From Azolla caroliniana (Eukaryota; Plantae; Polypodiophyta), in NCBI GenBank assembly GCA_043228905.1, contig JBHGNT010000006.1, positions 15,252,001 to 15,316,000 of the forward strand: DNA of 64,000 nt. The letters are read 5' to 3'. Position numbers and translations under genes: made by a program. Shown piece by piece: positions 4,301 to 50,669 of the stretch; positions within the stretch are counted from its first letter, which is position 1; every line of letters begins with the position of its first letter. The notes beneath the pieces are model-generated. The model was given only the letters and a program-made list of their open reading frames with translations. It was not told the DNA's origin and did no database searches.

Positions 4301-4416
4301 CTTCTCTTCCGGTTCTCACCAAGTCCATCCAATCCGGTTTTCGGATCTCTTCCGGCTCTCACCGGGTTCTCTTCATTAATAACCGGATCTCATCCGGAGG
4401 GACCAAATTCCCAACA
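1330..4416 (-). mobile_element. Degenerate Ty1/Copia element A' (5' LTR 3857-4416, PBS 3842-3853, gag-protease-integrase), same family as 49948-55466
   Basis: The LTR begins TGTTGGGAATTTGGTCCCTCCGGATG like the LTR at 49948 and has a tRNA-iMet PBS. ORF fragments MEESFGGMFKLTGSNY, CFYCGKLGHF, LWHKRLCHMS, ELVHTDVC and PELNGLAERMNRT are broken by stops. Confidence 0.9.
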
Positions 4417-17720: not shown

Positions 17721-17842
17721 TGTTAAAAAAACAGAAAAGAAAACATATACAAGATTTTGAATGGTAATAATGAAAAGGCATGTTGACAACCACATTTAAG
17801 GAGCACCATGCGTCACAATCATACTATAATGATACACAACGT

Positions 17843-18616
17843 TGTCGTAGTGTATTTCGTACACTACGTGAAAAACTTATAAAGTACCGATTTAATAAAT
17901 ATGAATAAATAGTAGAAAATATTAAAATATATATAACATGCATAGGGCCAAATTCAAACCTTGCACCTCCATGTTAATAATGTAATGTCTTACCATTACA
18001 CTAGCATTTCATTAGTGTTCAAAAGTAGATGTTCCAAATAGAAAGGTTAGTTCACTTATGATAAACTTTAGTTAAAAGAAAAACGCATGCTAAAAGAAAA
18101 AGCTACGCATGCACATCTAGCGTGCATGAACGCTGTAGTTGATAATAAAAAACGCAGAAGTTAGAAAAAGCATGATCACTTTAGATCAAGCATATACTCT
18201 ATCTATAGGAAAAACATGGAGTCTATAGTTAGAGAAGAAAAAGCATGGATTGCTAAGACTCTCTCTCATCTCTATATAAGGATGAGGAGCACAATGTAAG
18301 TGTGTAAAATATTTGAAAATTGGATATATTTCTAAAAGACACCAATTAAAATATGCCTGGGATTCACGAAATAATCTATACTTGTGGGATTCACAAGTTC
18401 TTTTTAATCTCTTTCTTTCAATCTAAATACATATTCTTATCTAAATATTGATTAATCGAATACAATACACTCGTGGGATTCACGAGATTTCTATCTCTCT
18501 TTCTAATAATCGATCCATAACTATAAAGTTGTCTCAAATTCTTCTTCCTCCTAGTCCAAAACCCCAGCAGTTCCCACCCGACTCACGCAAACGATCTGGC
18601 GCCGAAAGGCACGACA
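17843..18616 (+). mobile_element. Solo LTR, family F (same family as the element B LTR)
   Basis: TGTCGTAG...GCACGACA; AACGT on the left and CA+AACGT on the right; homologous to 35533-36258 and 14767-15524. Confidence 0.85.
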
Positions 18617-21631: not shown

Positions 21632-24139
21632 TGTTAGGATCAGAACCAACCACAACTGGTTACTCTTATGTATGTTCGGGTGCAAAGAATCGACAATGGT
21701 AGTGCACAGACAAGAAAGAACAGAAACGAGAAATTAAAAAACGAGACATAGATATTTAACGTGGAAAACCCAAAAAGGGAAAAACCACAGGGGTCCACAA
21801 AACCCGAGAAACAGAATCACCATAATGAGGGAGGAATACAAGGAGACTTGGAGGCAACAACCTCGAGCTCGTATTCGTCAAAATGATGGTTCAACCGACA
21901 TGTTCGAATCGGTATATCCTTCCTGGTTACCTGAGCCGAATCGAAGACACACTCGAGGTGCCTATTAAAGATCTAGGTACTAATGTAAGCTTAAGATAAG
22001 GATAAACTAATGATAGATAAAAAGGAGAAAGAGAAAAGAAGAGTGTCGATCCACCCGACCACCCCCGAGCGAAGGGATCGAGACGGACTCGAGCCTCGAT
22101 CGGCGTCCCATACCACCGCCGTGGCGTCGAGTCGTACCTGGTGCTGGCGTGCTCGCTACAAGAGTTGACCCACCACAAGAGCAGAGTCTCGATGTAGTCA
22201 AAAGATGATCAAATGAGGGTAGCCAGGCCTCTTATTTATAGCGATACCCAAGGCCCCCTAGGCAAGTTCACACTTGACCTAATGGGTTGTCTCAATCCCG
22301 AGGATTAAAAGTAATCCTCCCCTTCTTTACACTCTTGTTTAACCCTCACACTTATCCACGTGTATAGAATACTACGGTAAATTCTCGCCATGGGATATTA
22401 AATGGTCATGCCCGTAACATACTCCCTTCTTTAAAACATTGCACTCTTGCAATGGAATGTTAGGGAAGTTTGTTCTTAGAGTATTCTCGCGTTCCCATGT
22501 GGCATCTTTGATAGATTTTTCCATCCATTTAATTTTAAACTCTCGGATTTCTTTAGCACGTAAGTTTTTTGTTTTAACATCGAGAATTCTTTCTGGTACA
22601 TGTGGTTTTGAAGATAAATCTTTAGAAGTAACCAGAGTTTCAGTTGTAACTGTGTTGTCGCCAAAACCTAGAAGTTCTTTTAGACGACTCACATGGAAGA
22701 CTGGATGAATTCCAACACCATCGGGAAGAATGAGATGATAGGCTGATGACCCAATGCGTTTGAGAACTGTAAAAGGCCCACAAAACCGTGGGGCTAACTT
22801 AGCGCACTTACCCGTAGACAATGTCTTAGAATTGTGAGGTACATGTAAAAATACCTTTTGTCTAGGGTTGAATACACGAGGTTGCCTATGATGGTCCGCA
22901 TAAAAACGCACTCTATCTTGAGCTGTTTTTATATTATCTCGTGCAATATGCAACATATCTTGCATATCCCGAAGAAAGTTTTGTGTACTTCGCAACTCAT
23001 CATGATGTATATTAACATCAATCGGGGCTCGTGGCTGAAAACCATACATCAACATAAAAGGACTATATCCCGTCGACGTATGCTTGGAGTTGTTATAAGA
23101 AAAATCCAAAATTGGGAGATAACGTTCCCATTTTGTTGGTTTTGCACCAACGTATGCTCGAAGCATGTCCTCAGTAATTTGATTTACTCGTTTTGTCTGT
23201 CCATCGGATTGAGGATGATCCGTGGAGCTCTGTTATGTACACATAACGTTGGTGAGGGTAGGTCACTAATATTTACATTAGTGAAGGGTATGTTCACTAT
23301 TATTAAAAAGGGGACTAATGATTGGATAGAATGAATGATATGTGCATGCACTATCATGATTTAGACAACCAATGAATAGAGAGCCTTTTAGAAAGGCACA
23401 TCTATTCAAGGGGCCTAGGAAAAGGTATAAATATGAGGCTTAGCTACCCTCATAGAGAGGATCACGTCGGAAGGCTGCTGTCGTAGACACCGGTGGTGCG
23501 GGCTAGGCTTTCGTCTCGACGATCGTGTTTATCTCTTCCAAGGTATTAGTCATCCTAATATCCGGCGGTATGGGACGTCGGTGGTAGGTTGGCTATGTCT
23601 AGATCATAGCTCGGGGGTGGTCGGGTGGAACGGGTTCTTCTATCCAATCTATTTTCTTCCTTTTTACTTGATTTGGTCTATTGATTAGTAGTAGACTCTT
23701 AACAGTGGTATCAGAGCTTTTACTAACAATTTTTTTGTTGTTTTGATGTTTTTTGCGTGTGAGCGAGGGGGATCTAACAAGGCTCGTCATGCTCTTCTCA
23801 GGATCAAAACAACACTCTAAACCCGGTATTCTTCTTTTTTGATCTCTTCTCTTTTTCTATTATGCGTTCTTTATGGTCGAATCAAATTGGTATTACGTTT
23901 TATTCTCTTTCTTTCTACCTCCTACTACGCTACGATTTTACTTATTATTATGCATTGGGCCGAGCGTGTTTGCACTAATCGCACACGCTCAACTCATGGC
24001 CTTTTGCATATTGCGATATATATCCCACTCTCTCCTCTCTTGAACTCTTACGATAATAATTATTCTTGTGCATTGGGTCGAGCGTGTTTGCTCTAATCGC
24101 ACACGCTTATCTCATGGCCGTTTTGCATATGATGTTGAG

Positions 24140-24470
24140 TATACCACTCTTCCCCTCTATTGAGCCATCACTTGGCCGATTCTAAGGGATGATGTGGCCT
24201 TGACGAGGTGTATGTTGCCTACCTATGCCACTCTACTCTCTATTAAGCCATCAATTGGCCGATTCTACGGGATGTTGTCGCCTTGACAAGGTATATGTAG
24301 CTTACATATGCCACTTTCCTTTTTAATTAGCCATCAATTGGCCGATTCTAAGGGATGATGTGGCCTTGACGAGGTATATGTCACTTACCTATGCCACTTT
24401 CCTCTTTAATTAGCCATTACTTGGCCGATTCTAGGGATATGTGGTGGTCTTGAGGAGGTGCATGTCAACT
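24140..24470 (+). repeat. 83-bp tandem repeat (4 copies) in the leader of element E
   Basis: TTGGCCGATTCTA recurs at 24172, 24255, 24338 and 24421. Confidence 0.85.
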
Positions 24471-25460
24471 ACCCTAGGGTTTCGTATCTTAGGGCATGTT
24501 TGATTCCATACACCTAATTGTTGATTATTCTAATTAAATTTTAATTTCATAAGTATTGTTTCACTTATATGATTTTCTAGTAATTATTATTTACCCGCCC
24601 ACAATTAACTCTCCTTTTTCCACTTCCTTTTCATGTATAAAGTATTTACATCGTTTATTTTTAATGTAACCTTTACGTGTAGACTACTTTTCGTATGGAG
24701 TGGCTTGTTGAACGATTTTTTTTTTTCAACGGGTCATCTAGGTTTAACTCTTATCATCAAGCCTTAGAAAACGAGTAAAACCATATGAGTTCCCTTATTG
24801 ATGTTTTAATCATGGATTTGAGTATTACATCTTTGCGCACAACACCGTCATCACTTGTATCAATTTGTGGCTTATGTCACAATTGTGCAAGTTATAACAA
24901 TCATATTGGGATGTATATGTGCATACCTTGCACTTCCCATTTATTTGTGACATTGTTTTTTTTTGTACGTAACACATGGGTTCTTTTTTTTTACCCTTGT
25001 TTTCGTCACTACTTAACTTTTATGAGTAGTGCCTTATTTTATCATTTTATCATCACGTTTGCTTATTGCTCGCAAGACTAGAATATTACTTGTGAGTGCA
25101 CTTGTTTTTTCACGTAATACACTTTCTCGACCATATAATACATGATGGGTTGGCATTAATATAAGGCTATCTAGGAAATTTCATTGATGTAAGAACCATG
25201 GTTGAGCCTCGGGGAGCCGCCATGATTACTCAAGATAGAGATCCGAGAAATACATCTTAGCTATGTTTTCCCCCATGGTTTTTAAAACACCATAGTGTTA
25301 CCATAGTTATCGGATCTCGAATCACATCTCATATGTCTAGAGGGGTAAAGACATGAGATACTTTCTTGGATAAAGTTCTTTCAATCAAAATTTCAAGCAT
25401 TCATTTTGCTTGTGTATTTTCTGAACCTCCTTATTTTATTGCATACCCACAACGTGCATC

Positions 25461-26567
25461 ATGGAACAAGTTTTGAACGCAGTTGGAACGATCTCTCCAA
25501 ATGAGACCTCTCAACCCCAATCCGCATCTCGCACACAAGCTGAGATCACTATTGAGCAATTGCTCACTACTACCTTGAATCAATTGGCCGAAATGAGACA
25601 GGCCAATATGGCATTGGAAAAGAAATTCCAAGAATTAACTATTGAGTCCAAGAAAGAAGGTGAACCTTCCTTCGTAGTCACGCCTTTCAAGGGAGATAAG
25701 AAAGAAAGAACCGAGGAGGCTATTAGCACTTGGCTTGGTCGTTGGGAGTCTCACTTTGAGCTTCATCCCAAGCCCGATGCAGTAAAAATTGGTTATGTCG
25801 GTCGTGAGTTAGGTGGCCGAGCTGCTGCTTGGTGGCGTGGCCTAAGGACCGCAAAAAACTTACCCACAACTTGGGAAGGTTTCGTTGATGTTTTTAAGAA
25901 ACAATTCTTGCAGCCACCTTCTCAAACCGAACAAGCGCAACACTTGCTCACATTGTCTAGTAAGCCATTTACCTCTCTCGAGGATTATGTGCATCACGCT
26001 CGGACCCAGATCCAAAAATCGGGACTTACGGGTGAGAAATGGTTTGTCGCTTGTTTTTTGAATGGTATTCCCAATGGGGATTATCATTGGATTGTCCATG
26101 ACAAGGACCCCACAACTTTCGAGGAAGCCGTCAACATTGTGCTGCGATACCATAGGACTTCCAAGAAAGACCACAATAAACCTGAGTTCGCCAAAACTCC
26201 GAATGTCAAGTTCATTGGGAAACGTAAGCAATCCAGTGACACTCTTGACCGCGACTCAAAGAAACCGAACCTCGTCTGTGCATATTGCAAGAAGTGGGGC
26301 CACACAAAGGATACCTGTCGTCGTCTTGAGAGGAAGTCAATGAACACCCCTCCTCAAGACAAATCTACGAGTCACACAGGTGAGTCTTTTGATATTGTTG
26401 AAGTTCATACCAATCACTTAAGTTTATGTGAATGCACTTTTCCTTCACATTTACTTGGACCTAATGATTTACTCCGAGCAGTCGGGTATATCAATGGAAC
26501 ACAAGCACATTTCTTGTTTGATTCCGGTAGTTCTCACAATTTTCTTAATGATCACTTTGTGCAATAA
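25461..26567 (+). CDS. gag: Gag and N-terminal protease of element E (premature stop inside the protease)
   Basis: 368-aa ORF with CAYCKKWGHTKDTC knuckle and FDSGSS. The homologue in element I reads on through this stop position. Confidence 0.85.
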   Translation: MEQVLNAVGTISPNETSQPQSASRTQAEITIEQLLTTTLNQLAEMRQANMALEKKFQELTIESKKEGEPSFVVTPFKGDKKERTEEAISTWLGRWESHFELHPKPDAVKIGYVGRELGGRAAAWWRGLRTAKNLPTTWEGFVDVFKKQFLQPPSQTEQAQHLLTLSSKPFTSLEDYVHHARTQIQKSGLTGEKWFVACFLNGIPNGDYHWIVHDKDPTTFEEAVNIVLRYHRTSKKDHNKPEFAKTPNVKFIGKRKQSSDTLDRDSKKPNLVCAYCKKWGHTKDTCRRLERKSMNTPPQDKSTSHTGESFDIVEVHTNHLSLCECTFPSHLLGPNDLLRAVGYINGTQAHFLFDSGSSHNFLNDHFVQ

Positions 26568-26769
26568 ATGGAACTCCACATAAACGCAAGTGATCATATC
26601 TATCAAGTTCACATGGCAAATGGAAGTGTTCAATACATCAGTGGCATTGTTTGTCAACTGCCAATTCAAATATATACCTATTTGGAGAAGCTTGACTTTC
26701 ATGTTATGAAACTACAATCCACAGATGTCATTTTAGGATACCCTTGGTTTTTTAATAAAAAACCCTTCT

Positions 26770-29700
26770 TTGTCCATTGATTGGATTAATCACTCAATCA
26801 CATTTGAACTTAATAGTTGTAAACATTTTATTCAATGTTCCAAACTTCCTTCTCGTTCACTTGTGTCTTCTAAATCTTTAAGTGAGTATTCTAGTTCATT
26901 AATTTATTCGTGTGTAATTGATCCTGCGGTTCAATTTTATTATTTTAATATTGACGCCACACAATTACCACATTTTGAGCAACGATTACTCGACTCTATT
27001 TTAGAGGATTTTCAAGATGTGTTTCCTACTGAATTACCGCTTACTTTACCACCTAAACGTAATGTGGACCATCAAATTGAACTCATCCCTGGGGCTGCTC
27101 CTGTGAGCATTCCACCTTACCGACTTAGTCGATTAGAAGAGGATGAGATCGCTAAACAACTTAAGGAATACTTGAGTATGGGCCACATTAGGTATAGTAA
27201 ATCACCTTGGGGTGCGCCAGTTCTATTAGTCAAGAAGAAGGAAGGTTCGTGGCGAATGTGTATCAATTATCGCCGTTTGAATAAAATGACAATTAAGAAT
27301 GCATATCCATTACCTCGTGCCGATGATTTGATTGATCGTTTGCACGGGGCTCGATATTTTACGAAAATTGACTTACGAACTGGTTATCATCAGATTCGCA
27401 TCGCCGAGGATGATATTCCTAAAACCGCTTTTCGTACGCGCTATGGCCATTATGAGTTTTTAGTCATGCCATTTGGGTTGACTAATGCTCCAGCCACATT
27501 CCAACAAGCGATGAATGATGTTTTCCGATATCAACTCAGTGATTTTGTTGTCGTCTTCTTGGATGATATTTTGATATATAGCCGTACCTTGCAAGATCAT
27601 GTTCAACATGTTCGATTTGTTTTGCGAAAGTTGCGTGACAACTCTTTCTATGCAAAACATTCAAAATGTGACTTCTTCCAAAAATCTATTGTGTACCTAG
27701 GTCATTTAATTACAGAAAATGGCGTTGAAATTGAACCTTCTCGTATTGAAAAGGTTAAACTTTGGCCCATTCCTCGTAATATTCGTGAACTTAGATCATT
27801 CTTAGGGTTTGTTGGATTTTTACGAAAATCAATTCGTAACTATTCCAAATTGACTACGCCATTAACTGACCTTTTAAAAGGTCATCCACGTAAGTCTGTC
27901 AAACCAATTTCATGGAATGAACAACTTGACAAATCATTTGAGACACTCAAGGAGCATGTGTGTCAGGCTCCCACTCTTCTATTACCAGACCCTTCTAAGC
28001 CTTTCTCAATTGAAACCGATGCTAGTGATTATGCTATTGGTGCCGTTCTTTATCAAGGTGGTCACCCTATTTCTTTTGAAAGTAAGAAGCTTGATGCTGC
28101 TCAATCTCGGTATTCGGTTCAAGAGAAAGAGTTGTTTGCGGTGATACACGCACTTAAAACATGGAGGCACTATCTCTATGGAAATAAATTTGTGGTTACA
28201 ACAGACCATCAATCATTAAAGTATTTTTGTGACCAGCCCGATCTTGTTGGTCGTAAAGGCTGTTGGGCTGACCTTATGCAAGATTTTGATTTTTCCATAC
28301 GATATCGCAAGGGTTCTATGAACACCGTTGCTGATGCTCTTAGTCGCATTAAAGAAGTTAACATGCTTAGCTTCACGGAAATAAAATCTGATCTTTTAGA
28401 TCGCCTTCGAGGGAAATACCTTGATGACAGTTATTTCTCAAAATACTGGACGAAAGCCGAATCTGGTTTAGATGCCGGTACTAGCACCCTACCCTCGAAG
28501 GCGACCTTTCACATTACAAACGGTTTGCTCTACCGTAGTGGAAAGGTCTGTGTTCCAGATTTACCAAATGTTAAACAGAAAATTTTTCATGAATGTCATG
28601 ATGCACCATCTGCTGGTCATCCTGGAATACAACGCACACTCGTTCTCATCTCGTGTACTTTTTTCTGGCCTAAGATGCGCTCTGACGTGCATAAATACGT
28701 AACTCAATGCTTACAATGTCAGATTAATAAGTCGGAACGACTTAAAGCTGCTGGTCTTTTACATCCCTTAGATATTCCCAACAATAAATGGGAAAGTATC
28801 TCGATGGATTTTATTGTTAGTTTACCTCGTACACAGAGGGGTCATGATGCCATATGGGTTGTCGTTGACAGGCTAACAAAATTAGCTAGATTTATTCCTA
28901 CAAAAACCACGGTAACCGCTCAACAGTTGGCTTATCAATTTGTTGATGAGTTATTTCGTTTTTATGGATTACCGATGGATATTGTTAGTGATCGAGATTC
29001 CAAGTTTACTAGTGACTTTTGGACTCAGGTCTTTAAGAAACTAGAAACTACGTTGAGCATGAGTTCCGCAGATCATCCTCAGTCTGATGGACAAACTGAA
29101 CGAGTTAATCAAATTATTGAGGACATGCTTCGAGCTTATGTAGCAAAAACCCCTTCTAAGTGGGAGCAATACCTTCCTATCTTAGAATTTGCCTATAATA
29201 GCTCTAAACATACATCCACTGGATATAGTCCTTTTATGTTGATGTATGGTTTTCAGCCACGTGCCCCAGTTGATGACACGATTCATCGTGATACATTAGA
29301 CAGTACACACAATTTTTTGCAAGACATGAACCAAATGTTGCATATTGCCAAAGAAAATATCAAGACAGCTCAAGATCGTGCTCGATTTTATGCTGATCAG
29401 GATAGACGTCCTCGTGCATTTACTATTGGTCAAAAAGTTTTTTTGCGTGTCCCGACTGATTCTACGTCATTATCTACGGGCAAGTGCGCTAAGTTAGCCC
29501 CACGATATTGTGGCCCATTTGAAATCCTTAAGCGAGTTGGGTCATCTGCTTATCACCTTGCCTTACCTCGTAACGTTGGTATTCATCCTGTTTTACACGT
29601 CAGTCGTCTAAAACCATTTTTAGGCTCTGGTGATAACACCATCACAATCCAAGATCTTGTAACATTAGAGGATTTTTCTTACAAACCTCATGTTCGTGAA

Positions 29701-29865
29701 CGAATTCTTGATTCTCGTACTAAACGTTTACGTTCTAAAGAGATTCGGCTATTCAAGATCAAATGGATGGATAAACCTATTGATGATGCCACATGGGAAC
29801 GCGAGCATTCGCTTAAGGCACAATTTCCTCACTTTATATTGCAAGAGTGCAATCTTTTGAAGTAG
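26770..29865 (+). CDS. pol: Pol of element E: RT, RNase H, integrase, chromodomain (cut off from gag by a stop and an extra A near 26760)
   Basis: 1031-aa ORF with FLDDIL, ETDASD, HDAP..GHPG/CLQC, SMDF, SDRD, GQTER, GPF and IKW...ATWE. Confidence 0.93.
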
Positions 29866-32800
29866 GGGAGTATGTTATGTACACATAACGTTGGTGAGGG
29901 TAGGTCACTAATATTTACATTAGTGAAGGGTATGTTCACTATTATTAAAAAGGGGACTAATGATTGGATAGAATGAATGATATGTGCATGCACTATCATG
30001 ATTTAGACAACCAATGAATAGAGAGCCTTCTAGAAAGGCACATCTATTCAAGGGGCCTAGGAAAAGGTATAAATATGAGGCTTAGCTACCCTCATAGAGA
30101 GGATCACGTCGGAAGGCTGCTGTCGTAGACACCGGTGGTGCGGGCTAGGCTTTCGTCTCGACGATCGTGTTTATCTCTTCCAAGGTATTAGTCATCCTAA
30201 TATCCGGCGGTATGGGACGTCAGTGGTAGGTTGGCTATGTCTAGATCATAGCTCGGGGGTGGTCGGGTGGAACGGGTTCTTCTATCCAATCTATTTTCTT
30301 CCTTTTTACTTGATTTGGTCTATTGATTAGTAATAGACTCTTAACAAGCTCATGCTCAACGTAGTTTCTAACTTCTTAAAGACTTGCGCCCAGAAGTCAC
30401 TAGTAAACGTTGGATCTCGATCACTCACGATATCCATCGGTAACCCATAAAAACGAAATAATTCGTCAACGAATTTGTAAGCCAATTCAGGAGTTGTTAC
30501 CGTGGTTTTAGTAGCAATAAATCTAGCCATTTTAGTCAGTCGATCAACGACAACCCAGATGGCATCATGACCTTTTTGGGTGCGAGGAAGGCTAACAATA
30601 AAATCCATGGATATACTTTCCCACTTATTATTGGGGATGTCCAAGGGATGTAAAAGTCTTGCGGCTTTAAGTCGCTTGGCTTTGTTAACCTGACACTAGT
30701 GACATTTAGTCACATAGCTATGTATGTCAGGACGCATCTTAGGCCAATAAAATTGAGTGGAGATGAGAACGAGTGTACGATGTATTCCAAGGTGCCCTGC
30801 TGAGGGTGCATCATGGCATTAAAAAAGAATCCTCTTTTTGACCTCCGGTAAATCTGGAACACAAACCTTCCCATTACGATAGAGCAAACCATTAACAATG
30901 TGGAAGTATTTCTTCGAGTATGTGGTGGTGTCTGTTCCAGACTCAACTCTTGCCCAGTATTTTGCAAAATAATTGTCATCAGGATACTTTCCTCGAAGGT
31001 GATCATAAAGATCTGATGTTATTTCAGTGAAGCTAAGCATGTTAACTTCACGGATGCGACTTAGTGCATCAGCGACAGTGTTCATGGAACCTTTACGATA
31101 TCGTATGGAAAAATCAAAGTCTTGGATGAGATCAGCCCATCGTGCCTTACGACCTTTCAGGTCTTGTTGGTCACAAAAATATTTTAAGGACTCGTGGTCC
31201 GTAGTTACCACAAAGCGATTTCCATAAAGATAATGGCGCCATGTTTTGAGCGCATGTATAACTGCAAATAATTTCTTTTCTTGAACGATACCGACATTGA
31301 GAAAAAATCAAGTTTCTTACTCTCGAATGCTATTGGTTTACCATCTTGATACAAGACAACACCTATAGCATAATCGCTTGCATCGGTTTCAACCTCAAAA
31401 GGTTTTGAAGGATCAGGTAAAAGAAGGGAAGGAGCCTTGCAACCCAGGTCCTTGAGTTCCTTAAAGGCGAGGTCTAGTGTAGCATTCCACACAATAGGTT
31501 TTGTAGACTTACGCGTTTGACCTTGTAAAAGATCAGTAAACGGCGTCGTCAATTGGGAGTAATTACAAAGAGACTTTCGCAAAAACCCGACAAAACCAAG
31601 GAATGATCGAACTTCTCGAATATTCCGAAGAGTGGGCCAAAGCTTGATTTTCTCAATGCGAGAAGGATCAATTTCAACTCCTCGTTCAGTTATGAGATGT
31701 CCTAGATAAGTAATTGATTTCTTGAAGAACTCACATTTTGAGATCTTCGCATAAAACTGTTTGTCACACAATGTTTGTAAAACAAAGTGGACATGTCTAC
31801 CATGTTCTTTTAATGTACGGCTATAAACTAAAATATCATCCAAGATAATAACGACAAATTTTCCAAGTTGTTCTCGGAAAATGTCATTCATTTCTTGTTG
31901 AAAAGTGGCCGGAGCATTGGTCAAACCAAAAGGCATAACCAAGAACTCGTAATGACCATAGTGCGTACGAAATGCCGTTTTAGGAACATCGTCCTCATTT
32001 ATTCATATTTGATGGTAGCCAGTACGGAGATCAAGTTTCGTAAAATACCGAGCTCCCTGGAGACGGGCAATGGGTACGAATTCTTGATCGTCAATTTATT
32101 CAAGCGTCAGTAATTAATACACATACGCCATGTGCCCTCTTTCTTTTTTACCAAGAGAACTGGTGCACCCCATGGAGATTTACTATAACGTATATAACCC
32201 ATTCGTAAATAGTCCTTGAGTTGCATAGATACCTCATCTTCTTCGGATCGACTTAAGTGATACGGAGGTATACTTATTGGTGCAACACCGGGTACAATAT
32301 CTATACGATGGTCTATATTACGTTTAGGAGGTAACCCATCAAGTAGTTCACTTGGAAAAACATCATGAAAATCATTTAAGATTTCATCAAGTTGTTGTTC
32401 AAAATATGTTAATTGAATCGGGACATTATCGATATTGTAAACGTGAATGTCCAGATAAAGTACACAATAAAATAATGTAGAACAAGACAACTAGGATTTT
32501 GATGAACACGAGGAAACAATCGAGAGGGATTGTTTTTTGATACATTGAATAAAATGCGTACAATCGTTCAGTACAAAAGAAATGGAATGGTGAACCCAAT
32601 CAATAAATAAAGAAGAGTTTTTATTATAAAACCAGGGATAACCTAGTATTACATCGGTGGTACAAAGATTCATTACATGGAAGTCAACTTCCTCTATATA
32701 AGTATCAATAGAAATTCCTAATGAATGAATCACCCTGTTGATGTATTGTACTCTTCCATCAGCCAAGTGCACCGTGTAGGTGTGATCACTTACGGTGGGT

Positions 32801-35532
32801 TGGATTCCCCATATCTGAACCAAACGATCATTCACAAAATTGTGTGAGCTTCCCGAATCAAATAAAAATTGTACAGGAGATCCATTGATATACCCGTTTG
32901 CACGTAGTAAATCATTGGGACCCAATACATAGTGAGGGAAAGAACTTTGACAATTACTTAAATGATGTGTATAGACCTGAAGGACATTAGGAATCTAACC
33001 TTTATGGTCTGAAGCTTTAGGTTTGCTGTCGTGCTCTTTCCGTTGGAGCTTTCGACATTGCTCTTTTGTGTGACCCTTCTTTTTGCAGAATACGCAAAAA
33101 GGATGTTGTCGCTTACAATCGCGATCTAGGAATTCGTTGGGAGTCCCGGGCGCTTCGTTGGGTTTGTTGTGGTCCTTCTTTGAAGTGCGTTGATAGCGAA
33201 GAACTATTTCAACGGCCTCTTCAAAGGATTTTGGATCCTTATCGTGCACTATCCAGTGATAGTCCGAATTGGGGATTCCATTGACAAAACAAGCTATCAA
33301 CCAATTGTCCCCTTCTAGACCCGATTTTTGGATTTGGGTTCTAGCAAGGTGAACATAGTCTTCTAGCGAGGAAAATTTCCTGCTAGAGAGGTTCATTAAA
33401 GCTTGTGCTGCCTCGGTTCGAGAGGGAGGTTGCAGAAATTGGCCCTTAAAAACCGTGACAAAATCTGTCCAGGTATCGGGCAATTTCCCCATAGTACGGA
33501 GCCCATGCCACCAGGTGGCGGCCTTACCCCTGAGTTCTCGGCCGACATATGCAATCTTCGTACTATGTGGCGTGGGATAGAGCTCAAAATGAGACCCCCA
33601 TCGTCCCAGCCATGTGCAGATTGCTTCTTCGGTTCTTTCCTTTTTGTCTCCCGTAAATGGCTTAACGACAAATGATGGTTCACCTTGTCGCTCATCAGGT
33701 CTATTAGTCTCACGTTGTAGACTAATGACACGTGCCTCAAGAGCACTCTGAGATTGCCGAAGTTCGGTCATTTGTTGAGCGGTGAAACTAAGGTATTGGC
33801 TTATTTGTGCCAAATACATCTCAGTGGACATTTTTCCAGGAGGATTCCCTTGAGTTCCTTCCACTTGAGCGGATGACATCGGGTCGTTAATTTGAGCCAT
33901 TAAAGATTATTTCTGGAAAAGAAATAGGATAAGGTCAGAGAGATAGTCATAACATCATGTCGTGATGCAAACATATCATGGGCAAACATTAATCGATATC
34001 ATGATCTCACGTCAATACCCCTCTAGACGTATGTGATGAGGTTCAAGATCAGGTTACTATGGTAACACAAAGGTGTTTTAAAAACCATGGGGGTGACAAT
34101 TTAATGTCTTTCCCTGATCTCTATATCAATTTTTTCATGGCAGCTCCCCGAGGCTCAACCATGTATGTTCGCGTCATGAGTAGTTTATACACGAAATTTT
34201 TTTTAACAATAAACTATGTTTCTTTGCCCACATATGTGGTTTCGGCTCTTTAAGTCCTATTACGAGGACCCCAAGGTGCACTTAGACCGTAAGTCTAAAC
34301 ATGTGTTATAGTCATATGTATCAAGGATGTTGTATGGTCTTGGTCATATTTGAACTCGAGACCTCGAGAACAAATACATTAAACACTTGAGCCAACCAAG
34401 GAAGTTGCTCTTCTCGAATGTTTAATGTTTGATTATCAAAACTATGTTCGTATATTACCTAACCTCAAGTCTCGTAATTACGATGGCATACGCCAAAGTG
34501 CAACCTAATGATCAAGCCAAATGAGCCCTCGTTTTGTAGTAGGCCCACATGGCCCATCACATGGTCACGTCATTACAAATGCCTCTCGTAAGAACGAGCT
34601 CATGGTGGCATCGTATCCATGTAACGAGGGAGGGATGTTGGATACGTGTGTCATTGGATCGACCTCACTTGAAGTGGGTCAAGCCCTACGTACTCAACAT
34701 CATTATGGCTATAGGCGTTTCTTTACGTAACGAAATCAAGGTCATCAACGGGGTTGTCAACAATCAAAAATTGTTGAAAAAGGGATGGTGACAACGCCAT
34801 TCTCACAAAAATGTGAGGACGGCCACCCCGGGGGCTCCACTATATATAAAGAGGTCGTATCACGTGTGTTCATGGCATCTTTTATAAACCCCTTATACGT
34901 ATATTTTTTACTATTTTAGATACCCTTCTATAAAAAAACGACTAATAAAAATACCCCTTCGTGCCAATATATATTTTGACAACAACTCATTTTAAATGCC
35001 CTTACATAGAAGACACATGTATGTTTTATACATGTGTACGTATGTGTGTGTGTGTGTGTGTGTTCATATGTATGTATTGCATTGTATTCCATGTTTATTT
35101 ATTTATGTGTTATATATCTTACATGTATGGCATGTGTCTATATGTTATGTGTATGTGTGTAGTGGCTTGTGTTTATTTGGAGCTAAATCATAAAGAGTCC
35201 TACAAGAGAGTCGTTCCATGGACAATACAAGTTGCCCAACTTAGGGCATGTTTGATTTGGATAAAAAAGTGTCATCAAAAAATCTTGTTTTTGGTCACCC
35301 GACTCAAAGGCAGTCACCTAACAAGTCACTCGACTCAAATAAAGTACCCGACTATCTCAAGGCAAGCAAGTTACAAGTAAGGAAGTGATCAATTGAAAGA
35401 ATGCTAAAAGTAAATGGCTTAGTGATTAGAGCCATTCCTTAGATTCAATGGGTTTAAAGTTTGAATCTTTGTTCCCTCTTAGTGAGAAGAGGGTTCGCTT
35501 TCCTTATTGGTCAATTTTGGGGTCTTTTACGT

Positions 35533-36258
35533 TGTCGTAGTGTATTTCGTACACTACGTGAAAAAGCAAAAATAATATAACCGATTTAATTACATATAAA
35601 TAAATAAAATAAGAATAATCAAGATATTTATCACGTGCATAGGGCAAGCTTCGAACCTTGTACCTCCACGTAGCCAAACCTCAACTTTACCATTATGCTA
35701 CCTTATCTTTAGTGTTGTATAAATAGATTTAATAACTATAAGTGCTTTATTTGCGCCTACCTTTATTAAAAAGGTAAATCATGTATTTTTAGAGTGCGTG
35801 AATATTTTATAGAAAAACGCAAACAACTAAAAAGTGACTCATGCACATCTAGCGTGCATGAGCACTATATTTAGCAAATAAAAGCAAGGATTAGAAAAGC
35901 ATCACATGCACATTTAGTGTGCATGAACATATTAGAAAAAAGCATGTAGCTATGCTTAGTCTCTCCCATCACTATATAAGGATGGGGAGCACATTGTAGT
36001 TTTTGTTGATTATTTTTCTATAATGATCAATCAATCTAAAATATTCGTGGGATTCACGAATTTGCTAAAAATAATTCTCTCTTACTACCTAAATATTGAC
36101 TAAATATACTAAACTCGTGGGATTCACGAGATTCTTATCTTATAACTCTTTATACCTATTCTTTACTAGCCTTATTTGTATTTTTCTTTCTCCTAGTCCA
36201 AAACCTCGGCGGTTCCCACCCGACTCACGCAAACGATCCGGAGCCGAAAGGCACGACA
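35533..36258 (+). mobile_element. Solo LTR, family F; 4-bp TSD ACGT
   Basis: TGTCGTAG...GCACGACA flanked by ACGT at 35529-35532 and 36259-36262. Confidence 0.9.
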
Positions 36259-36870
36259 ACGTTTACTTCTTCTTCAACTTCTTTCTCTTTTAGGGTTTCA
36301 ACATTTGGCTTCAGGTTATGAAGTCACTTTACACTTCATTTACATTTAAGGGGTACTAATAGCGTTGTTGAATTCAACATCTTAATTATTAAATGTGTTC
36401 ATTTTTTTTCACCACAAGTTTGTAGTTGTCGGCACACACACATAGAAAAGATTAATTGAATTTTGAAGGACTTAAGGGAAGTGGCTCGACTTAACTTAAG
36501 GGAAGGGAATGTTATGATAGGAGAGACTTGGAGATACCATGGGATTCTAGCAACAAGCAATTGATTCTTGCATGTCTATATTTCAAGAAGGGATAGAAAC
36601 AAACAACATGGGAAGCTACAAACATGAACCAAATTTTGCATTGAACCTAAGGTTTAGGGTTTACTAAAGTGGTAAGGATTGTTTTACTAATAAAGACTCA
36701 AGAGTTCATTATTTGGTTTAATAGCTATTCTCTATTTAAACTTTATGAAATATCATCAACAATCATCATGAATACTCCATTGCAAGAAGTCCCTTCAAAT
36801 GCTCAATCATTTCTCACATCCCAACATATTTCAATGAGGAAGAGATTAATATATGATTATTCAATATGTG

Positions 36871-36975
36871 AAGCTTATCAAACAATATATGTGCTACATG
36901 GATCTAGCCACATTTGACTTACATGATACATATCAATTACACTATTGGCAATACAACATCCCCTTCTCGTACACC
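36871..36975 (-). pseudogene. Probable PLS-class pentatricopeptide repeat fragment
   Basis: Manual translation with frameshifts gives EGDV/IANSVIDMY/VKCG*IHVAHILFDKL, close to the PLS-PPR pattern D..N.LIDMY.KCG....A...FD. Confidence 0.5.
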
Positions 36976-37726
36976 TTTTCCTCAAATTACATAGTTTGCA
37001 ACAAACAAACACATGCAAAACCAACTTGCAATAATAATGAAACATATTTCAAATCAAACCACCATTACACCTAAGGTTCAAATGGTGTTTCAAAAAAACA
37101 ATTATTCATTAGACTAGATGAAAGTAATGGAAATAGTTTTATATTACAGCACATACAATTATTCATTTATCAATTAACTAGACTATCTCCCCCTTTTACA
37201 ACAGCCACTCAGAAGCTTAAATATGTTTAATATTTGTAATCAGTAGACCACCTCACTAGGTATCCTCTCCATATTTAAAATACTAATGAAGTGTTCTTCA
37301 TTTTCCTACTACTTTACAAATGTGACCTTCCGATTGTTACATATCTGTTAGTCTAAGCAACAATCTACCTATTATGGGCTTTAAATTGCTCTATATTTAA
37401 TTACTATATTGAGCATACAAGAGTTTAAAAGTAAACACATTTTGGTAAGCAACATGTGCATTGTATACAGTTGAGAAGCAATGCCAGTTGATGTATAATT
37501 GAAAGTGAAACATGAATTATGTGCCCAAAACATTGATAAATATTTAATCTAATTACCATGACTTACATGATGAATATAACACGTATAAGAGGAGCAAACT
37601 AGGACATACAAATTTAGTCCAAAGCTTTAGGATTTGGAAGTTTCAAAGTTTATGCAATTCATAGGAATGAAGACCAACCATACTGATAGAACAAAAGACA
37701 GACATAGGAAGAAATGCATGATTCAC

Positions 37727-38196
37727 AATCTTCTGGTAATGTTTGTTTCCACCTCTGCAAAGTTTGAGGTGGATAGCCATCATCCCAGGTCGGAAATAAT
37801 TGGTTTCCTAAATAAAATATATTTCTCGTCATTTCCATTTAATTTGAAGAATAAAAAGGAAACACAATGAATAAATAAAGCTATAGTACTATTATACATT
37901 CCTAAAGCAATATGCACAACCAAACATGATTTCTACTAAGCTCCTAAGAAGAACAATGTTCATTCTTTTCTCATGACTTTATTTGCATGAAAAAGAAGAA
38001 AATATGCCATAATGAGTGAAGAACAAGGCACAACATCCACCATGGTCACAAGACAAATACATACCCGGACAATGCAATGACGGGCAAGTCCTACTGCGAC
38101 AATACTCTCTGCAACTTGCTTCACAATGTAAGCTCCACTCCAATCGATATTGGTAGGGTCCTTCCCAGAGAATGCACCACCACCATGAGCTCCCCA
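37727..38196 (-). pseudogene. SAMS: S-adenosylmethionine synthetase fragments: two exons (38065-38196, 37727-37807) separated by GT..AG intron sequence
   Basis: [44 protein letters not shown]|gtatgt and tttag|ETNYFRPGMMAIHLKLCRGGNKHYQK match the MAT signatures GGGAFSGKD and FRPGM..LDLKRGGN. Confidence 0.9.
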
Positions 38197-38573
38197 CGAG
38201 GCTTCTCAAGAAGAAAAGAGCTCTTCTTGCCTATGAAATGATGATAGCAAATACACAGATTAACATGGAAAAAAACATGAGAGGAAATGTTGCAAATGCA
38301 TGTGTGCATGCATTCATACATGTATACAAACACAACCATGCATATGTAAATACTCATACACACATGCACACATGCGGAAATGGTTTAAAACTGATATAAT
38401 ACATAGATGATGAGCTACATAAAAGGAAGGTAACATTAAATATTGCCGTGACTCTCTCTTTAAGAAATATTAATACACTTTTGTTGCTTCCATTTGCTTT
38501 CATTCTCTCTCTAAGAGACATTAATACATCTCCCCTTTCTTTCGAAAACCTAGTTCCTCACTCTATTTAAGCT

Positions 38574-39288
38574 TTAGAAGAGTTGGTTATCCACAACATC
38601 GGCCACAAAAGGAATGTGAAGAATTTTTCCAAGAATGCAATAAACAATTCTGAAAACCATATAGTCAGAAGAAGCGAAACAAAGACAACATAGTAGAACA
38701 AGATGAGAAGATCAAAACCGAATCCACTCTTTGGGATGAGGATCCTCTAAACGATGAGAGGGATAACAATAAGAACATCCAAGACACATGCTTGCATTGC
38801 ATTGAACCTAACATACCTCGGAAAGCTGGGATTTTTGACAAGAGCAAGGTAAATTGTGAAAAAAACCACAAAATTTGCATATGGGATGCTCGAGTAGAGA
38901 CAGAGGAGGAAATTGTCGTATTGCACCCCATTGAGAATTGGAAGGAAATATCCTACTGCTGATAACACTCTATCTATGGCAAGTGTACGGCCACCATTCC
39001 TTGAAAATGCTCTGATTGTGTTGGTGATCATCTATGCTCTCCTTCCTTTGTCCTTTAACCATAACCCATTTCTTACTGATACGAGACCATGAAAGAGAGG
39101 GAGAAGACTAACCTAAGATGGTAGTTTTTTATCAATACTTGAATACCTAGTCGTGTGATGTCTCAACGAAGCCGTGAAGGAGGAGGACGAGAAATAACTT
39201 CTATGAGCGGTAACACTAGGGGATCTTTTTGATTTTGCAATTGGTCGAAAGAGGAGGGAGAAGTAGAGAGATGTGCCGCCATAGCCAT
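38574..39288 (-). pseudogene. TIC20-II: Chloroplast inner-envelope translocon TIC20-II-like pseudogene, spanning transit peptide to stop
   Basis: DRVLSAVGYFLPILNGVQY..IPYANFVVFFTIYLALVKNPSFPRYVRFNAMQACVLDVL and, after a stop and frameshift, ILGKILHIPFVADVVDNQLF*. The upstream MAMAA + Ser/Arg-rich leader has stops, and there is an internal deletion of roughly 17 aa. Confidence 0.85.
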
Positions 39289-39529
39289 GAGCTCCAATAC
39301 CTTTACTTTGTTTCTTTCTGTTTTCTTGTTCTTGCAATCCCCTTCCTTTAGATTTAGCGCTCTCTCACACTCTCTTTTAACCCCATAGCCCCTTTTTCTC
39401 TGTCTCTGTCTCTCTCACTCCCCCTTTCTTTTCCCCCCACTTGTTTCCTAAAACACAAACATATGTAATCTCCCCCCTTTCCTTGCCCCATTTTTTAAAC
39501 CAATTAGTGTTTTAAAAAAAGTGTTGTAG

Positions 39530-41830
39530 CATGTTTATGTATGTATGTTTTATACACGTGTGTGTGTTTATGGTTGTGGATATGTATATTCTTTGTGTAT
39601 GTGTGTGTGTGTGTGTGTGTGTATGTGTGCACGCTCTCGCGTGATCTATACATGTGCATATATGCATGTATTGTATTCCATGTGTTGTATGTATGGCATG
39701 TGCATATGTAAGTATGTGATATTATGTGTGTGTATGTGGAATGTTCTATATATGTGCATATGTGTGTATTGTATGTATTATATGTATGGCATGTGTGTAT
39801 GTACATGTATATATATGTTATGTGTGTGTGTGATGTGTATGTATTATATGTGCATGTGTATATATGTATGTATCTACATATTGTATTGTATTATATTGTA
39901 TATATGGCATGTGTGTATATATTGTATTGTATGTATTGTGTGTCTAGCATGTGAGTATGTAGGGTATGTGTTATGTGTTTGTGTGTATGTTCTATGTATA
40001 TGCATATGTGTGCATTGTATTGCATGTGTATGTATGTGTTATATGGGTGTGTGTGTGTGAATATGTTATATACGTGGGCTATTGTATGTACAACATGTGT
40101 GCGTATGACATGTATATGTGTTATGTGCGTGTGTATGTTCTATAGATGTGCATATGTATTGTATTGCATGCATATATATGTATGTGCTATGTATGCATTT
40201 GTATGTACATATTGTATTGTATTAATTGTATATATGGGATGTGTGTATGTATTGAATTGCATGTGAATCTATGTACATATTGTAGTTTGTATGACCCTGT
40301 ATGACCTATATATATGGTGACATGTGGAATATGTATGCACATATGTAATGTGTGTATGTAATATATGTATGTATGTTGTGTATGTACTGTATAAATGTAT
40401 GGATGTGTATGGATGTATGTTTGTAAAATTTATATGTGTATCATGGTAGGCATATGTATGTATATACGTGTAGCAATGTATGAATGAATATATGTATGTT
40501 CATGTACGAATGTACATATGTGTATGCATATGTAATGTATGTATGTATGTATGTGTATGCATATATCCATATGTCAATGTATATGATTTGGTGTGTATGG
40601 ATGTGTGATTGTAATATGTAATTTATGTATATATCTAATGTATTTATATGTAGCAATGTATAAATGAATATAGCCTATAGGTATGTCCATGTATGAACGT
40701 ACATATGTGTATGCATATGTAATGTAATGTATGTACGTACGTACGTACGTACGTATGTATGTATGTATGTATGTATGTATGTATGTATGTATGTATGTAT
40801 CCATATGTCAATGTACATGACTCAATGTATATGAATGTGTGATTATAATCTATGAATATGCAATGTATCTATGCACATGTATGAATGTACATATGTGTAT
40901 ATATGTAATGTATGTATGTTTGTATGTGTAACAATGTATGCATATATGCATACATGAGTGTGTGGATGTTTGTTCGTAATATTTATGTATGTGTATGTAT
41001 ATATTTATGTATGTGTATGTAGTTTGTGATGATATGTATGTATATATGTAATGTATGTATGTAACGTATTTGTGTATGCATGTATGTAATGTATGCATAT
41101 ATGTGTATGGATGTATGTTTGTAAAACTTATAACATTGTAGGCATATGTATGTATATATATGGGGATATGTGGAATATGTATGTACATATGTATGTATGT
41201 GTATGCATATATGTATATATCAATATACATGATTCAATGAGTATGAATGTGTTTGTAATATGTGCATAATATGTATGTATGTGTATGTATATGTGTGTGT
41301 GGTGCAGTGATATGTATGCAAATGTATGAATGTATGTATGTGTACATATACATGTAATGTATTTATGTATGTATATATATGTAATGTATTTATGTATGTA
41401 TATTTTTGGGATATTTTCATGTTTAGTATGTATATGGCTTGTATATGGATGTATGTTTGTAGTATGTATGTAATATGCATGTATATATCCAATGTATGTG
41501 TAAGCATACATATATCTAATGTGTGTGTGTGTGTATATGTAAGTATTGTGGTTTGTATGGTCCTATATCATCTATATATATGGTGATATGTGGAATATGT
41601 ATGTACATATGTAATATATCTATGTATGTATCTATATATGTATATGTGTAATTTATGTATGTATGTGTGTGTAAATTTGTATATTGTGTAATTGGTATGG
41701 ATTATATGCTATGTAATATCTAATTTATTTATGTGTGCTTGCGCGTGTATATATATGTAGTACATATATGTAACTTGTTTGTAAGTATGAAGATTTGTAT
41801 ACATATAGTATGTAATATTAGGTATTAATA

Positions 41831-41861
<31 letters not shown>

Positions 41862-42430
41862 ATATAATATGTAATTGATTTTTTTGTATGTATTATGTAT
41901 ATATGTATGTTAATATATATATGGTTGATTCTAATATGTATATAGTATGTAATGCATGTATGTATGTGTATGTACATATTTATATATAGTAATATATATT
42001 TGTACATATATTTAGTCAATTTGCATGTATAAATGGGGGGTGGGGGGTTAAACGAATACTTGACTACCCATTCGTATTCGTATTCGTTTGCATTCGAATG
42101 GGAAACCCCACGAATGTGAATATGTCAATCTATGTATGTAATATATAAAATATGTTTGTAAGAATGTGTATGGAAATATGTAATATTAATTTTATGTATG
42201 TATTATGTATATGTGTATGCCAATATACATGGCTGATTCTAATATCTATGTAGTATATATTGTATGTATGTATCTACATATTTATATATGGTAATATATA
42301 TTTGTACATATATTTATGTTTAATCAAAATGCATGTATAAATGGGTGTAATGTATATATATACATATTTATGAATGTAATGTTTGAATGTAGGTATATAT
42401 GGATGCATGCATGTATATGTATGTATGCTA
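39530..42430. repeat. Degenerate compound (TATG/TG/TA)n simple-sequence tract, ~2.9 kb, with internal block duplications
   Basis: Visible directly; a related short tract lies at 35015-35160. Confidence 0.95.
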
Positions 42431-45400
42431 CTCCAAATTTGAGTATTGTTTGCATAATATATTCTTTACTATCTCATTGAAATATCTAATATTTCATGGG
42501 CTTATGTAAGAAAAAATTCTAGCATAATTGATAATACCCTTATGTAAATATATTTTCAAATCTTTATTAATACCCTTATATATATGTTCTGTATCTCACT
42601 GATTAATTTAAACCCCTTTTGATGAACTCACGTGCTATCATACAAGTTTTGACAGTGAAGCCCCCGGGACGGCCACCAACATCCTTTTCCCGACAAGGAC
42701 AACTTTCGATATAATCACGTAATAACGAATATACACATATGTTTACTTATCACATATATACGATCAAATACGTATATACGTGACCACATATGCCTATATT
42801 AAACATATCGTTATATTAAATAGCCACAAATGATGTGATCGAGATACGTAATCGAGGTATATACCTCTACGCACACGAAACATCCACAAATAAGAGATCA
42901 TCGTAATACGCAATTGAGGTATTGACCTCTTACGCATACGAGACCAAACGTATATCCTTTACAACAAATCAAGGTATTAAATTCATACGCAACATAACAT
43001 ATGTTCGTGAATGTAATACGTAATTGAGGTATTAAACGTTTTAGATAATCAATTAAAGACCACTACAACACCATTGACTTAATGAAAAAAAATGACATAT
43101 AAACTAAACACATGATTAGATGGGAGAAGAGAGAATAGAAAAAAAAAATTACGGAAAGAGTTACCGAAGTTCTTTGTTGATCGTTGTCTGGATGAAGGCC
43201 GACCGCACATCGATCGATCACCATCAATCAAAAGACAAAAGACAAAAAAAGAAACATTAGTACATAGCTCTGATACCAAATATTAGAGATCTAGGTACTA
43301 AAGTAAGCTTAAGATAAGGATAAACTAATGATAGATAGAAAGGAGAAAGAGAAAGAAGGGTGTCGATCCACCCGACCACCCTTGGGCGAAGGGATCGAGA
43401 CGGACTCGAGCCTCGATCGGCGTCCCATACCATCGCCGTGGCGTCGAGTCGTACCTGGTGCTGGCGCGCCCACTACAAGAGTTGACCCACCACAAGAGCA
43501 GAGTCTCGATGTAGTCAAAAGATGATCAAATGAGGGTAGCTAGGCCTCTTATTTATAGCGATACCCAAGGCCCCCAGGCAAGTTCACACTTGACCTAATG
43601 GGTTGTCTCAATCCCGAGAATTAAAAGTAATCCTCCCCTTCTTTACACTCTCGTTTAACCCTCACACTTATCCACGTGTATAGAATACTACGGTAAATTC
43701 TCACCACGGGATATTAAATGGTCATGCCCGTAACAGTGTCTTTCATGTACCGAAGTATCCATTTGACTGCCATCCAATGTTCCTTTCCTAGATTGCTCAT
43801 GTATCGGCTGACGACGTCGACAACATATCCGATGTCAGGCCTAGTACAGACCATCGCGTACATCAAGCTTCTGAATGCCAAGGCATACGGAACTTTTGAC
43901 GTCTCGTCCTTCTCAGTCTTCGTCTTCGGACATTGGTTCTTGCTCAACTTGTAGTTTGTTGGCAGTGTCGAGCTGACCGGTTTCGCGCTTTCCATGCCGA
44001 ATCTTTGGAGCACTTTTGTCACGTACTTCTCCGTTGACAACCATAACAATTTCTTTGTTCGATCCCGAATAATGTGCATTCCCATGATTTGTTTTGTCGG
44101 ACCCATATCTTTCATCGAGAGCAACCTACTCAAGGCCTTCTTCAAACTTTCGATTTTCTTCGGGTCCTGTCTGACAATCAACATGTCATCAACATACAAC
44201 AAGAGGATGCGAAAATCTGCTCCATCATACTTCTTGACAAAGATGCAATGATCAACTTGTGTCTTGTCGAAACCATGATCCACCATGAACAATTCAAACT
44301 TTCGGTACCATTGCCGAGGTCCCTGCTTCAGCGCATACAAGCTGTTGCTCAATTGCCATACCAGGTTTTCTTTACCTTTTTCAACGAATCCTTCTGGCTG
44401 GTGCATGTATATCTCTTCCTCCAAATCTCCATGAAGGAAGGTAGTCTTGACGTCTAGTTGCTCGACTTCAAGATCCACGCTGGTTGCGATGCTCAACACT
44501 ATTCGGATTGACATCATCTTCACGACTTGGGCAAATAGTTCATCGAAATCGACACCCTTCTTCTACTGAAAACCTTTCACACCAATTCGTGCTTTGTATC
44601 TGGGTAGATTCCTGCCATCTCCTAGTTTCAGTTTATATACCCACTTGTACCAAAGTGCCTTCTTCCCTTTTGGCGATTTGGTCAATTCATATGTGTGGTT
44701 CTCATGCTAGGAATCCATCTCCTCTTGCATGGCACTTAACCACTTTTGGCTGTGGGTATCATTCTTAGCTTCTTCAAAGCTTTCCGGCTCCCCCTCATCG
44801 GTTAGCAATTCACGTTCCTCATCCAGAAATCTACGAGGGGCCCTCCTCTCTCTCAGGGATATCATCTACCTCCATTCGGTACAATCGGTTCTTCTTCAAT
44901 TTTTTCGGTCGATTCAAATTCGGTTCCTTGTTCGGCCAGTTCCCCTTGTTCTTCAGTTGGTTCTTGATTTTGCCGAGTATTAAATCGGCCGATTGGCTTG
45001 GATTCGATTTCGATCGAATCGACTTCTACTCGATTTGGCTAAGCATCGACTCAGCTCGATTCGATAGTTGGAGACTTATTCCTAAACTCCCAATCGACAA
45101 TCGTCTTCTCTTCCATGAATACAATGTATCGGCTCCTAATCACCTTCTTCTTGGCTAAGTCCTATAGCCAATAACCAAATTCGTCATCGGCATAGCCGAG
45201 AAATATACATGACCGAGATTTCGGGTTCAACTTCCCCCTCTGGTCCTTTACAACATGCACATAGGCAAGGCAACCGAAAGCCCTCAATTGTCGGTACGAG
45301 ACATCCTTGGCGCTCCGCACTCTTTGTGGAATATCACTGTCCAAGGGTACTGAGGGTGATCGGTTTATCACATATGATGCCGTCATCAGTGCCTCAGCCC

Positions 45401-50372: not shown

Positions 50373-50669
50373 GAAGAGGTCGTTGCCTCTGTGTACTGCC
50401 GCCGCCTGTGGCGAAGACAGTGAGCTCAAGGTTGTTGCCTTGTAGCTTCACCATTGTACATCTCTGTCTATAGTGATAGTTGGAGTTTGAGGACTCCCGT
50501 GGTTTTTCCCCAGTTAGGGTTTTCCACGTAAAACATCCCGTGTACTCTTCTCTCTATTGTACTTCGTGCATTTTGTATCTCCTGTTTTCTGAAAGTTGAT
50601 CCTATTCCTCGGTTGTGTCCGAGCACTGTTGTCCTACAAATTGGTATCAGAGCACGGTTAACACAGAAA

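Follow-up and report, generated by a model that had tools for sequence, protein, structure and literature searches.

A multi-copy, gene-capturing DNA transposon family with two-block ends in Azolla caroliniana and its likely link to the P superfamily

Pack-TYPE transposons with terminal inverted repeats (TIRs), namely Pack-MULE, Pack-CACTA, Pack-hAT, Pack-PIF and Pack-Mariner, are non-autonomous elements with conserved ends, a variable interior of host-gene sequence and a target site duplication (TSD), and the survey that describes them spans MULE, CACTA, hAT, PIF and Mariner in flowering plants (PMC8903248; here and below, papers are cited for the excerpts of them that were available). Here we describe such an element at positions 34827-42668 of a 64,000-nucleotide stretch of the fern Azolla caroliniana (contig JBHGNT010000006.1, 15,252,001-15,316,000 of the forward strand), the whole of which we call the window. 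It shares with the Pack-TYPE transposons its TIRs, TSD, mobility (an empty site, and 55 distinct flanks across the family), pieces of host genes and an interior free of transposase, but its ends fit none of their superfamilies well, its TIR is split into two blocks by a fixed spacer, its host is a fern, and its cargo occupies two slots around a kept intron end. The family it belongs to is a real, multi-copy and mobile Pack-type DNA transposon family with an unusual conserved two-block end, and it is most likely of P type.

GingerRoot of Selaginella, with its 6-bp TSD and long TIRs, is unlike the window element in both respects. The two are nevertheless alike as gene-fragment-carrying DNA transposons of seed-free plants (PMC6839031). 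Closer in the anatomy of its ends is the P superfamily (Drosophila P, zebrafish Pdre2, Anopheles P-MITEs and BuT5), for which an 8-bp TSD and outer plus inner inverted repeats (31 + 11 bp; 13 + 12 bp) are described features, as are left and right ends that differ internally and miniature inverted-repeat transposable element (MITE) derivatives of a few hundred bases (PMC7776569, PMC10983969, PMC1562414, PMC3698922). Gap filling, by which P elements capture DNA in Drosophila (PMC8277862), would be a further likeness. Because an outer and an inner inverted repeat have already been described for P elements, the two-block layout alone is less novel than it might seem. A review of land plants lists six TIR superfamilies, P not among them (PMC9033089, Table 1), and P MITEs have been reported for 'lower plants' (PMC3964958). 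Neither the window family nor a fern or conifer P element turned up in our literature search, which did not extend to Repbase or to most subscription papers, so that a library entry may already exist.

Ends, target site duplication and mobility

The initial annotation had read each end as an outer and an inner inverted block around an unrelated 19-bp spacer, with ACGGCCAC duplicated outside, and had placed the insertion in a chromovirus leader. All of these readings were borne out. The outer blocks are complementary at 14 of 15 positions and the inner blocks at 12 of 13, the 19-bp spacers are unrelated, and the ungapped complementarity of the two ends drops to background past base 47. With zero mismatches, either block motif occurs in the window only at the element's own ends; allowing 3 mismatches for the outer and 2 for the inner motif gives totals of 4 and 3, near the chance expectations of 1.4 and 3.4. 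The ends are organized as follows.

34819..34826, plus strand: left TSD, 8 bp, ACGGCCAC; a flank repeat, present once at the empty site
34827..34841, plus strand: left outer inverted block, 15 bp, terminus of the element (motif scan)
34842..34860, plus strand: left spacer, 19 bp, conserved across left ends and matching the right spacer at 6/19 positions
34861..34873, plus strand: left inner inverted block, 13 bp, starting CACGTG (motif scan)
34874..35043, plus strand: left subterminal region, common to family copies, with four A(A/T)(A/G)CCC(C/T)T repeats in the same direction
42240..42621, no strand assigned: right subterminal region, 81-93% alike in many copies, with three repeats directed as on the left
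42622..42634, minus strand: right inner inverted block (motif scan)
42635..42653, minus strand: right spacer, 19 bp (alignment of ends)
42654..42668, minus strand: right outer inverted block, terminus of the element (motif scan and contig alignment)
42669..42676, plus strand: right TSD, 8 bp (flank repeat)

The element sits between the primer binding site (PBS) and gag of a chromodomain-bearing Gypsy retrotransposon. We aligned contigs from four public runs, which represent no more than three samples, to positions 42420-43270 and observed the empty site in two of the runs: 4 contigs in X6 and 12 in X9 stop matching immediately ahead of 42667, and the sequence past these breaks is the left flank ending at 34816, which means that other leaders of this chromovirus hold a single copy of the target. 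Empty-site contigs were not among the matches listed for runs X4 and X1. Six listed contigs track the right end to 42662-42668 and then diverge into unlike sequence. In X6 the summed depth over the right end reaches 9,000-47,000, against 34-60 for most listed low-depth pieces, which is a measure of 'many copies' only, depth being no copy number. Over 36270-39400 in the same run, near-identical pieces have a depth of 168-184 and diverged pieces one of 28-45, a contrast that hints at several near-identical copies of the window variant, which may have arisen through transposition of the element itself or of the retroelement that hosts it.

Other copies with two-block ends, for which the initial annotation had proposed a search, proved to be many. 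A motif scan of metagenome contigs for such ends, in which spacers of 17-21 bp were allowed, added 58 ends from 57 contigs, with flanks that almost always differ. Together with the two ends of the window element they fall into the window's own family (family A, 33 ends) and a sister family (family B, 27 ends), and the 55 distinct flanks divide into 30 of family A and 25 of family B. Motif scans of viral contigs gave 0, 7 and 0 matches, and two scans of a genome contig collection gave 0; the seven viral matches were rejected as chance, the rest of the end being absent from them.

The terminal base is C in 57 of the 58 ends that have a flank, while the base just outside varies; a constant first base next to a variable outside base puts the termini at 34827 and 42668 and makes the TSD 8 bp long. 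Taken by itself, the window copy is compatible with a duplication of 8-11 bp (up to 11 flank bases repeat), but the 10-bp reading is contradicted by the terminus map across copies. A CACTA reading, drawn from CACTA/CACTG at bases 12-16, was also rejected, the true termini lying 11 bases further out. Scoring at 8 bp was feasible for 18 of the 19 elements with both ends: 10 have a perfect TSD (the window element included), 4 have one mismatch and 4 fail, so that 14 of 18 uphold the 8-bp duplication; in the remaining element, L035, the flank is too short for 8-bp scoring and its 7 bases do not match. Mean flank identity is 0.86 at 8 bp versus 0.18-0.34 at 2-7 and 9-12 bp. In the target, position 1 is preferentially a purine and position 8 a pyrimidine, in 44 of 60 cases for family A (p = 2e-4) and 34 of 50 for family B (p = 0.008).

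Spacer length is nearly invariant. Across 60 ends it is 19 bp in 46, 18 bp in 13 and 17 bp in 1; all 33 family A ends and 13 family B left ends have 19 bp, and the right ends of family B have 18 bp (13) or 17 bp (1). The four end classes agree at 13-15 of 15 outer and 12-13 of 13 inner positions, but at only 5-8 of 19 spacer positions. Neither spacer length, within the range allowed, nor the terminal four bases were imposed by the search pattern: family A ends start CCCGGGGGCT, with CCCG in 25 of 30, and family B ends start CACGGGGGCT or forms of it explicable by CpG decay. The A(A/T)(A/G)CCC(C/T)T repeats keep a single direction at both ends and throughout a family B MITE. A third end type, with a CTCG start, a 19-bp spacer and a different subterminal sequence, was seen at 1195-1384 of contig L048.

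Family B consists of MITEs with a CAC start, as against CCC in family A, with 19/18-bp spacers and 8-bp TSDs; its members, which form at least two size groups, include L003, L008, L010, L016, L017, L027, L028, L040, L051 and L056. The contig of the complete MITE L056 also carries a Copia open reading frame (ORF) whose best named matches, at up to 74%, are PITA_ proteins, PITA standing for Pinus taeda (PMC7602945). Since this ORF resembles Pinus taeda proteins, family B likely occurs in a conifer, as judged from the one family B contig examined. Plater of pines is likewise a conifer MITE of nearly the size of family B, but its description makes it probably distinct, with a length of 259-265 bp and a continuous TIR of 24-28 bp (PMC7602945), as compared with 268-418 bp and two blocks in family B.

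Captured cargo

The initial annotation had counted two to three unrelated host genes in the interior, all on the minus strand. Two of them stand, TIC20 and SAM synthetase, while the supposed third gene is a later exon of the SAM synthetase. The interior contains the following features.

37721..37807, minus strand: SAM synthetase, captured later exon (PDB 6vcz, E 0.0026)
38050..38199, minus strand: SAM synthetase exon, piece of the C-terminal domain (PF02773, E 8e-15), in a cargo region common to L022, L033 and L037
38192..38400, minus strand: central block, retained by 9 of the 11 other left-end copies compared, comprising a short exon start and an intron-like 3' end whose AG acceptor is at 38231
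38577..39256, minus strand: TIC20, captured nearly whole gene copy (PF16166, E 4e-16), broken by three stop codons, a change of frame and two deletions
39400..42240, no strand assigned: TG/TA-rich low-complexity tract, with comparable tracts in other copies

The TIC20 cargo covers residues 13-274 of its closest protein at 64-74% identity, and its named protein matches are from Adiantum, at 55-60%. Possible traces of an intact parent gene are a stop-free TIC20 of 274 amino acids (P0001) at 75% identity and diverged low-depth contigs that cover the cargo. Coding regions of SAM synthetase in angiosperms are usually intronless; in the captured copy (37721-38199) an intron-like stretch lies between the exons, and some 30 codons are missing there. 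The exon start in the central block may be IQD-like, a label that Pfam and PDB searches of this exon start, both blank, did not confirm. The IQ67 domain carries a phase-0 intron (PMC1368998).

Cargo differs among copies that carry the same ends, which upholds the original description of a Pack-type element. Comparison of 11 of the 14 other left-end copies revealed a common left end, at least four types of cargo in the first slot and differing second slots. Identified cargo in other copies comprises an RRM protein (L012), an AIG1-type GTPase (L046) and OSTC (L026), and most of the ORFs scanned had no match. Relative to the ends, all five identified cargo genes share one strand and point from the right end to the left; a weak PPR match in L037 (E 0.005) was excluded from this count. 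Three copies (L050, L052 and L020) contain an inverted internal duplicate, about 250 bp long, of a subterminal stretch resembling 42165-42409.

As the initial annotation had it, the interior lacks a transposase: none was found among ORFs of at least 35 amino acids in 34827-39500 (16 of 69 scanned with Pfam), nor among those of at least 120 amino acids in the whole window. Within one family copy, L009, positions 4385-5890 look like a nested element in its own right, bearing GTCGCCCAAC repeats and a SWIM-like ORF of 292 amino acids (Atlas scores 0.82-0.83, no Pfam match at E 0.5). Given this location, we rejected the ORF as a candidate for the helper transposase.

Superfamily assignment

We read the window element as a transposase-less copy of a multi-copy, gene-capturing family with 8-bp TSDs, for which a P-superfamily transposase made from another locus of the genome likely acts in trans, a reading we favor with some reserve. 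The 8-bp TSD matches the 7-8 bp expected of the P superfamily, and the combination of an outer TIR with an inner inverted repeat, a trait of that superfamily, is present, with a spacing unlike that of P and Pdre2. The superfamily had been left unassigned in the initial annotation; its observation that no transposase is present stands, and the evidence now disfavors hAT and leans to P.

Several observations weigh against this assignment. A P-type transposase has a GTP-binding insertion that splits its RNase H; Pfam scans of filtered ORFs from the 57 contigs, covering 148 of 305 and 150 of 222, revealed no transposase of any kind, so that we infer the superfamily and the P link is indirect. Termini of the P superfamily follow the rule CANRG, which fits 23 of 25 family B ends but 0 of 30 family A ends, these starting CC; the looser CNNRG fits 29 of the 30. 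Positions T2 and A7 of the Drosophila P target motif GTCCGGAC are not enriched (17 of 60, p = 0.54). The inner repeats lie about 400 bp inside in Pdre2 and about 100 bp inside in Drosophila P, compared with 19 bp here. Unlike the P superfamily, then, the window family starts CC, has its inner block 18-19 bp inside and uses targets without T2/A7, and in the excerpts consulted, host-gene cargo at such a scale was not found described for P elements. As for the family's own evidence, four elements fail at 8 bp (L015, L020, L025 and L049), and 13 of the 14 pairs that pass are family B MITEs, the window element being the remaining one. The sole other two-ended family A contig, L020, has no TSD (6 of 8 positions mismatched), for which a chimeric assembly of two copies may be the explanation. 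Conservation of the blocks is partly built in, the search pattern fixing most block positions, and five cargo genes would all share a strand by chance in about 1 case of 16.

Other superfamilies account for parts of the same evidence. A Pack-hAT with atypical ends, moved by a hAT transposase, would also produce the 8-bp TSDs seen here; Pack-hATs have been described in maize and rice (PMC8903248), and short TIRs with subterminal repeats, as in the window family, are hAT-like. We nevertheless consider it very unlikely, as the hAT terminal motif YARNG (PMC3014272) fits 0 of 30 family A and 1 of 25 family B ends and the hAT target motif NTNNNNAN (PMC3276498) is absent, T2 with A7 occurring in 1 of 30 family A flanks (p = 0.54) and 5 of 25 family B flanks (p = 0.10). 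MULEs, whose capture of genes is the textbook case, have TIRs of 14-500 bp and make TSDs of 8-11 bp (PMC6446971), a TSD range that fits. Every passing pair here, however, has a TSD of strictly 8 bp, and there is no long continuous TIR, although the latter point is not decisive since short-TIR MULEs exist. Multi-gene cargo in one direction does resemble that of Pack-MULEs, but MULEs start with G and a GG start occurs in 0 of 55 ends, leaving a Pack-MULE-like element with short, degenerate TIRs improbable.

A member of KDZ (Zisupton/Kyakuja) or Novosib, groups rarely recognised in plants, is another candidate of low probability. Zisupton makes 8-bp TSDs as observed here and Kyakuja has CA..TG termini, but the latter has 7-bp TSDs and no TIRs (PMC12730594); Novosib MITEs have been reported in 'lower plants' (PMC3964958). 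No KDZ domain was found among the ORFs scanned in the contigs. The helper might instead come from an undescribed superfamily or from a deep lineage common to ferns and conifers. We found no published rule that matches CCC/CAC starts together with a fixed 18-19 bp spacer and an 8-bp TSD, a literature text search with the terminal 10-mers returned no transposon paper among the matches listed, and a single end code is shared by two plant groups that are only distantly related; all of these features are, however, compatible with P, and we regard such a helper as unlikely. The idea that the two-block ends match by chance, or belong natively to the leader of the retrotransposon, could appeal only to the 8-11 bp ambiguity of the window copy and is refuted by the empty site and the 55 distinct flanks. 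CMC/CACTA/Chapaev/Transib elements (CA..TG termini, 2-5 bp TSD) were rejected on the 8-bp TSD, and Merlin (8-9 bp TSD, GG start) on the absence of any GG start in the 55 ends.

If the helper is of P type, as we favor, the outer 15-bp block would be its site of cleavage, while the inner 13-bp block, some two helical turns deeper inside, and the subterminal repeats of constant direction would hold the enzyme in place, a division of roles already suggested in the initial annotation for the two blocks. Its cuts in the target would be staggered by 8 bp, with a purine preferred at the first position and a pyrimidine at the eighth. Cargo would likely be acquired when repair of a gap, either within the element or where it had been, switches template, and would enter two internal slots that flank the kept intron end, and the slots are likely exchanged between copies by recombination. 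The predicted right-to-left transcript would splice second-slot cargo to first-slot cargo. More tentatively, and as a picture that may well prove too broad, the family could represent 'Pack-P', that is, P transposons in vascular plants that use one end code in ferns and conifers and that, in this fern, shuffle genes at high copy number and in one direction, with two slots around a kept splice acceptor giving rise to chimeric transcripts.

A helper of P type would add a superfamily to those of vascular plants and to the gene-capturing class, and it would imply that an element abundant in the genomes of ferns and conifers is overlooked or wrongly labeled by annotation pipelines. The two-block end with its 18-19 bp spacer offers a testable model for end recognition by a THAP-less plant transposase, and RNA data can directly test exon shuffling, because the direction of the cargo is fixed and the acceptor is kept. 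Even without the P link, the family is real and its end motif, CCCGGGGGCTYCACT-N18/19-CACGTGNGTTCAT, is usable for searches.

Host retrotransposon and neighboring repeats

The surroundings of the element and a later insertion within it comprise three further features.

21963..43735, minus strand: host chromodomain-bearing Gypsy, outside the DNA transposon and given as context only (long terminal repeats [LTRs], PBS, gag)
35465..36579, no strand assigned: 1.1-kb stretch missing from the relatives L002 and L022, likely a later insertion (copy comparison)
35533..36258, no strand assigned: solo-LTR-like repeat (TG...CA, ACGT on either side) within the 1.1-kb stretch (window self-comparison)

The LTRs of the host Gypsy (21963-22419 and 43281-43735) differ by 16 mismatches in 457 columns; its PBS lies near 43270 and its gag at 32998-33906. 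Because about 1.1 kb (35465-36579) is missing from its two closest relatives, L002 and L022, the element proper measures about 6.7 kb. The solo-LTR-like repeat within this stretch, which has a 4-bp flanking duplication, belongs to a TG...CA repeat family with relatives at 17839-18616 and 14767-15522. At 35244 and 24492 of the window, TTA is followed by a GGGCATGTTTG motif reminiscent of a PIF/Harbinger end; no partner end was found within the window. A short island with ATTCGT repeats at 42030-42120, in the low-complexity tract, may be what is left of another small transposon.

Copia or Gypsy sequence surrounds or adjoins several family copies (the flanks of L032 and L046, and the window element). 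A second chromovirus, with LTRs 99% identical, is nested inside the host Gypsy at 23231-30346, and a Copia element with an unbroken ORF of 1403 amino acids occupies 50532-54743.

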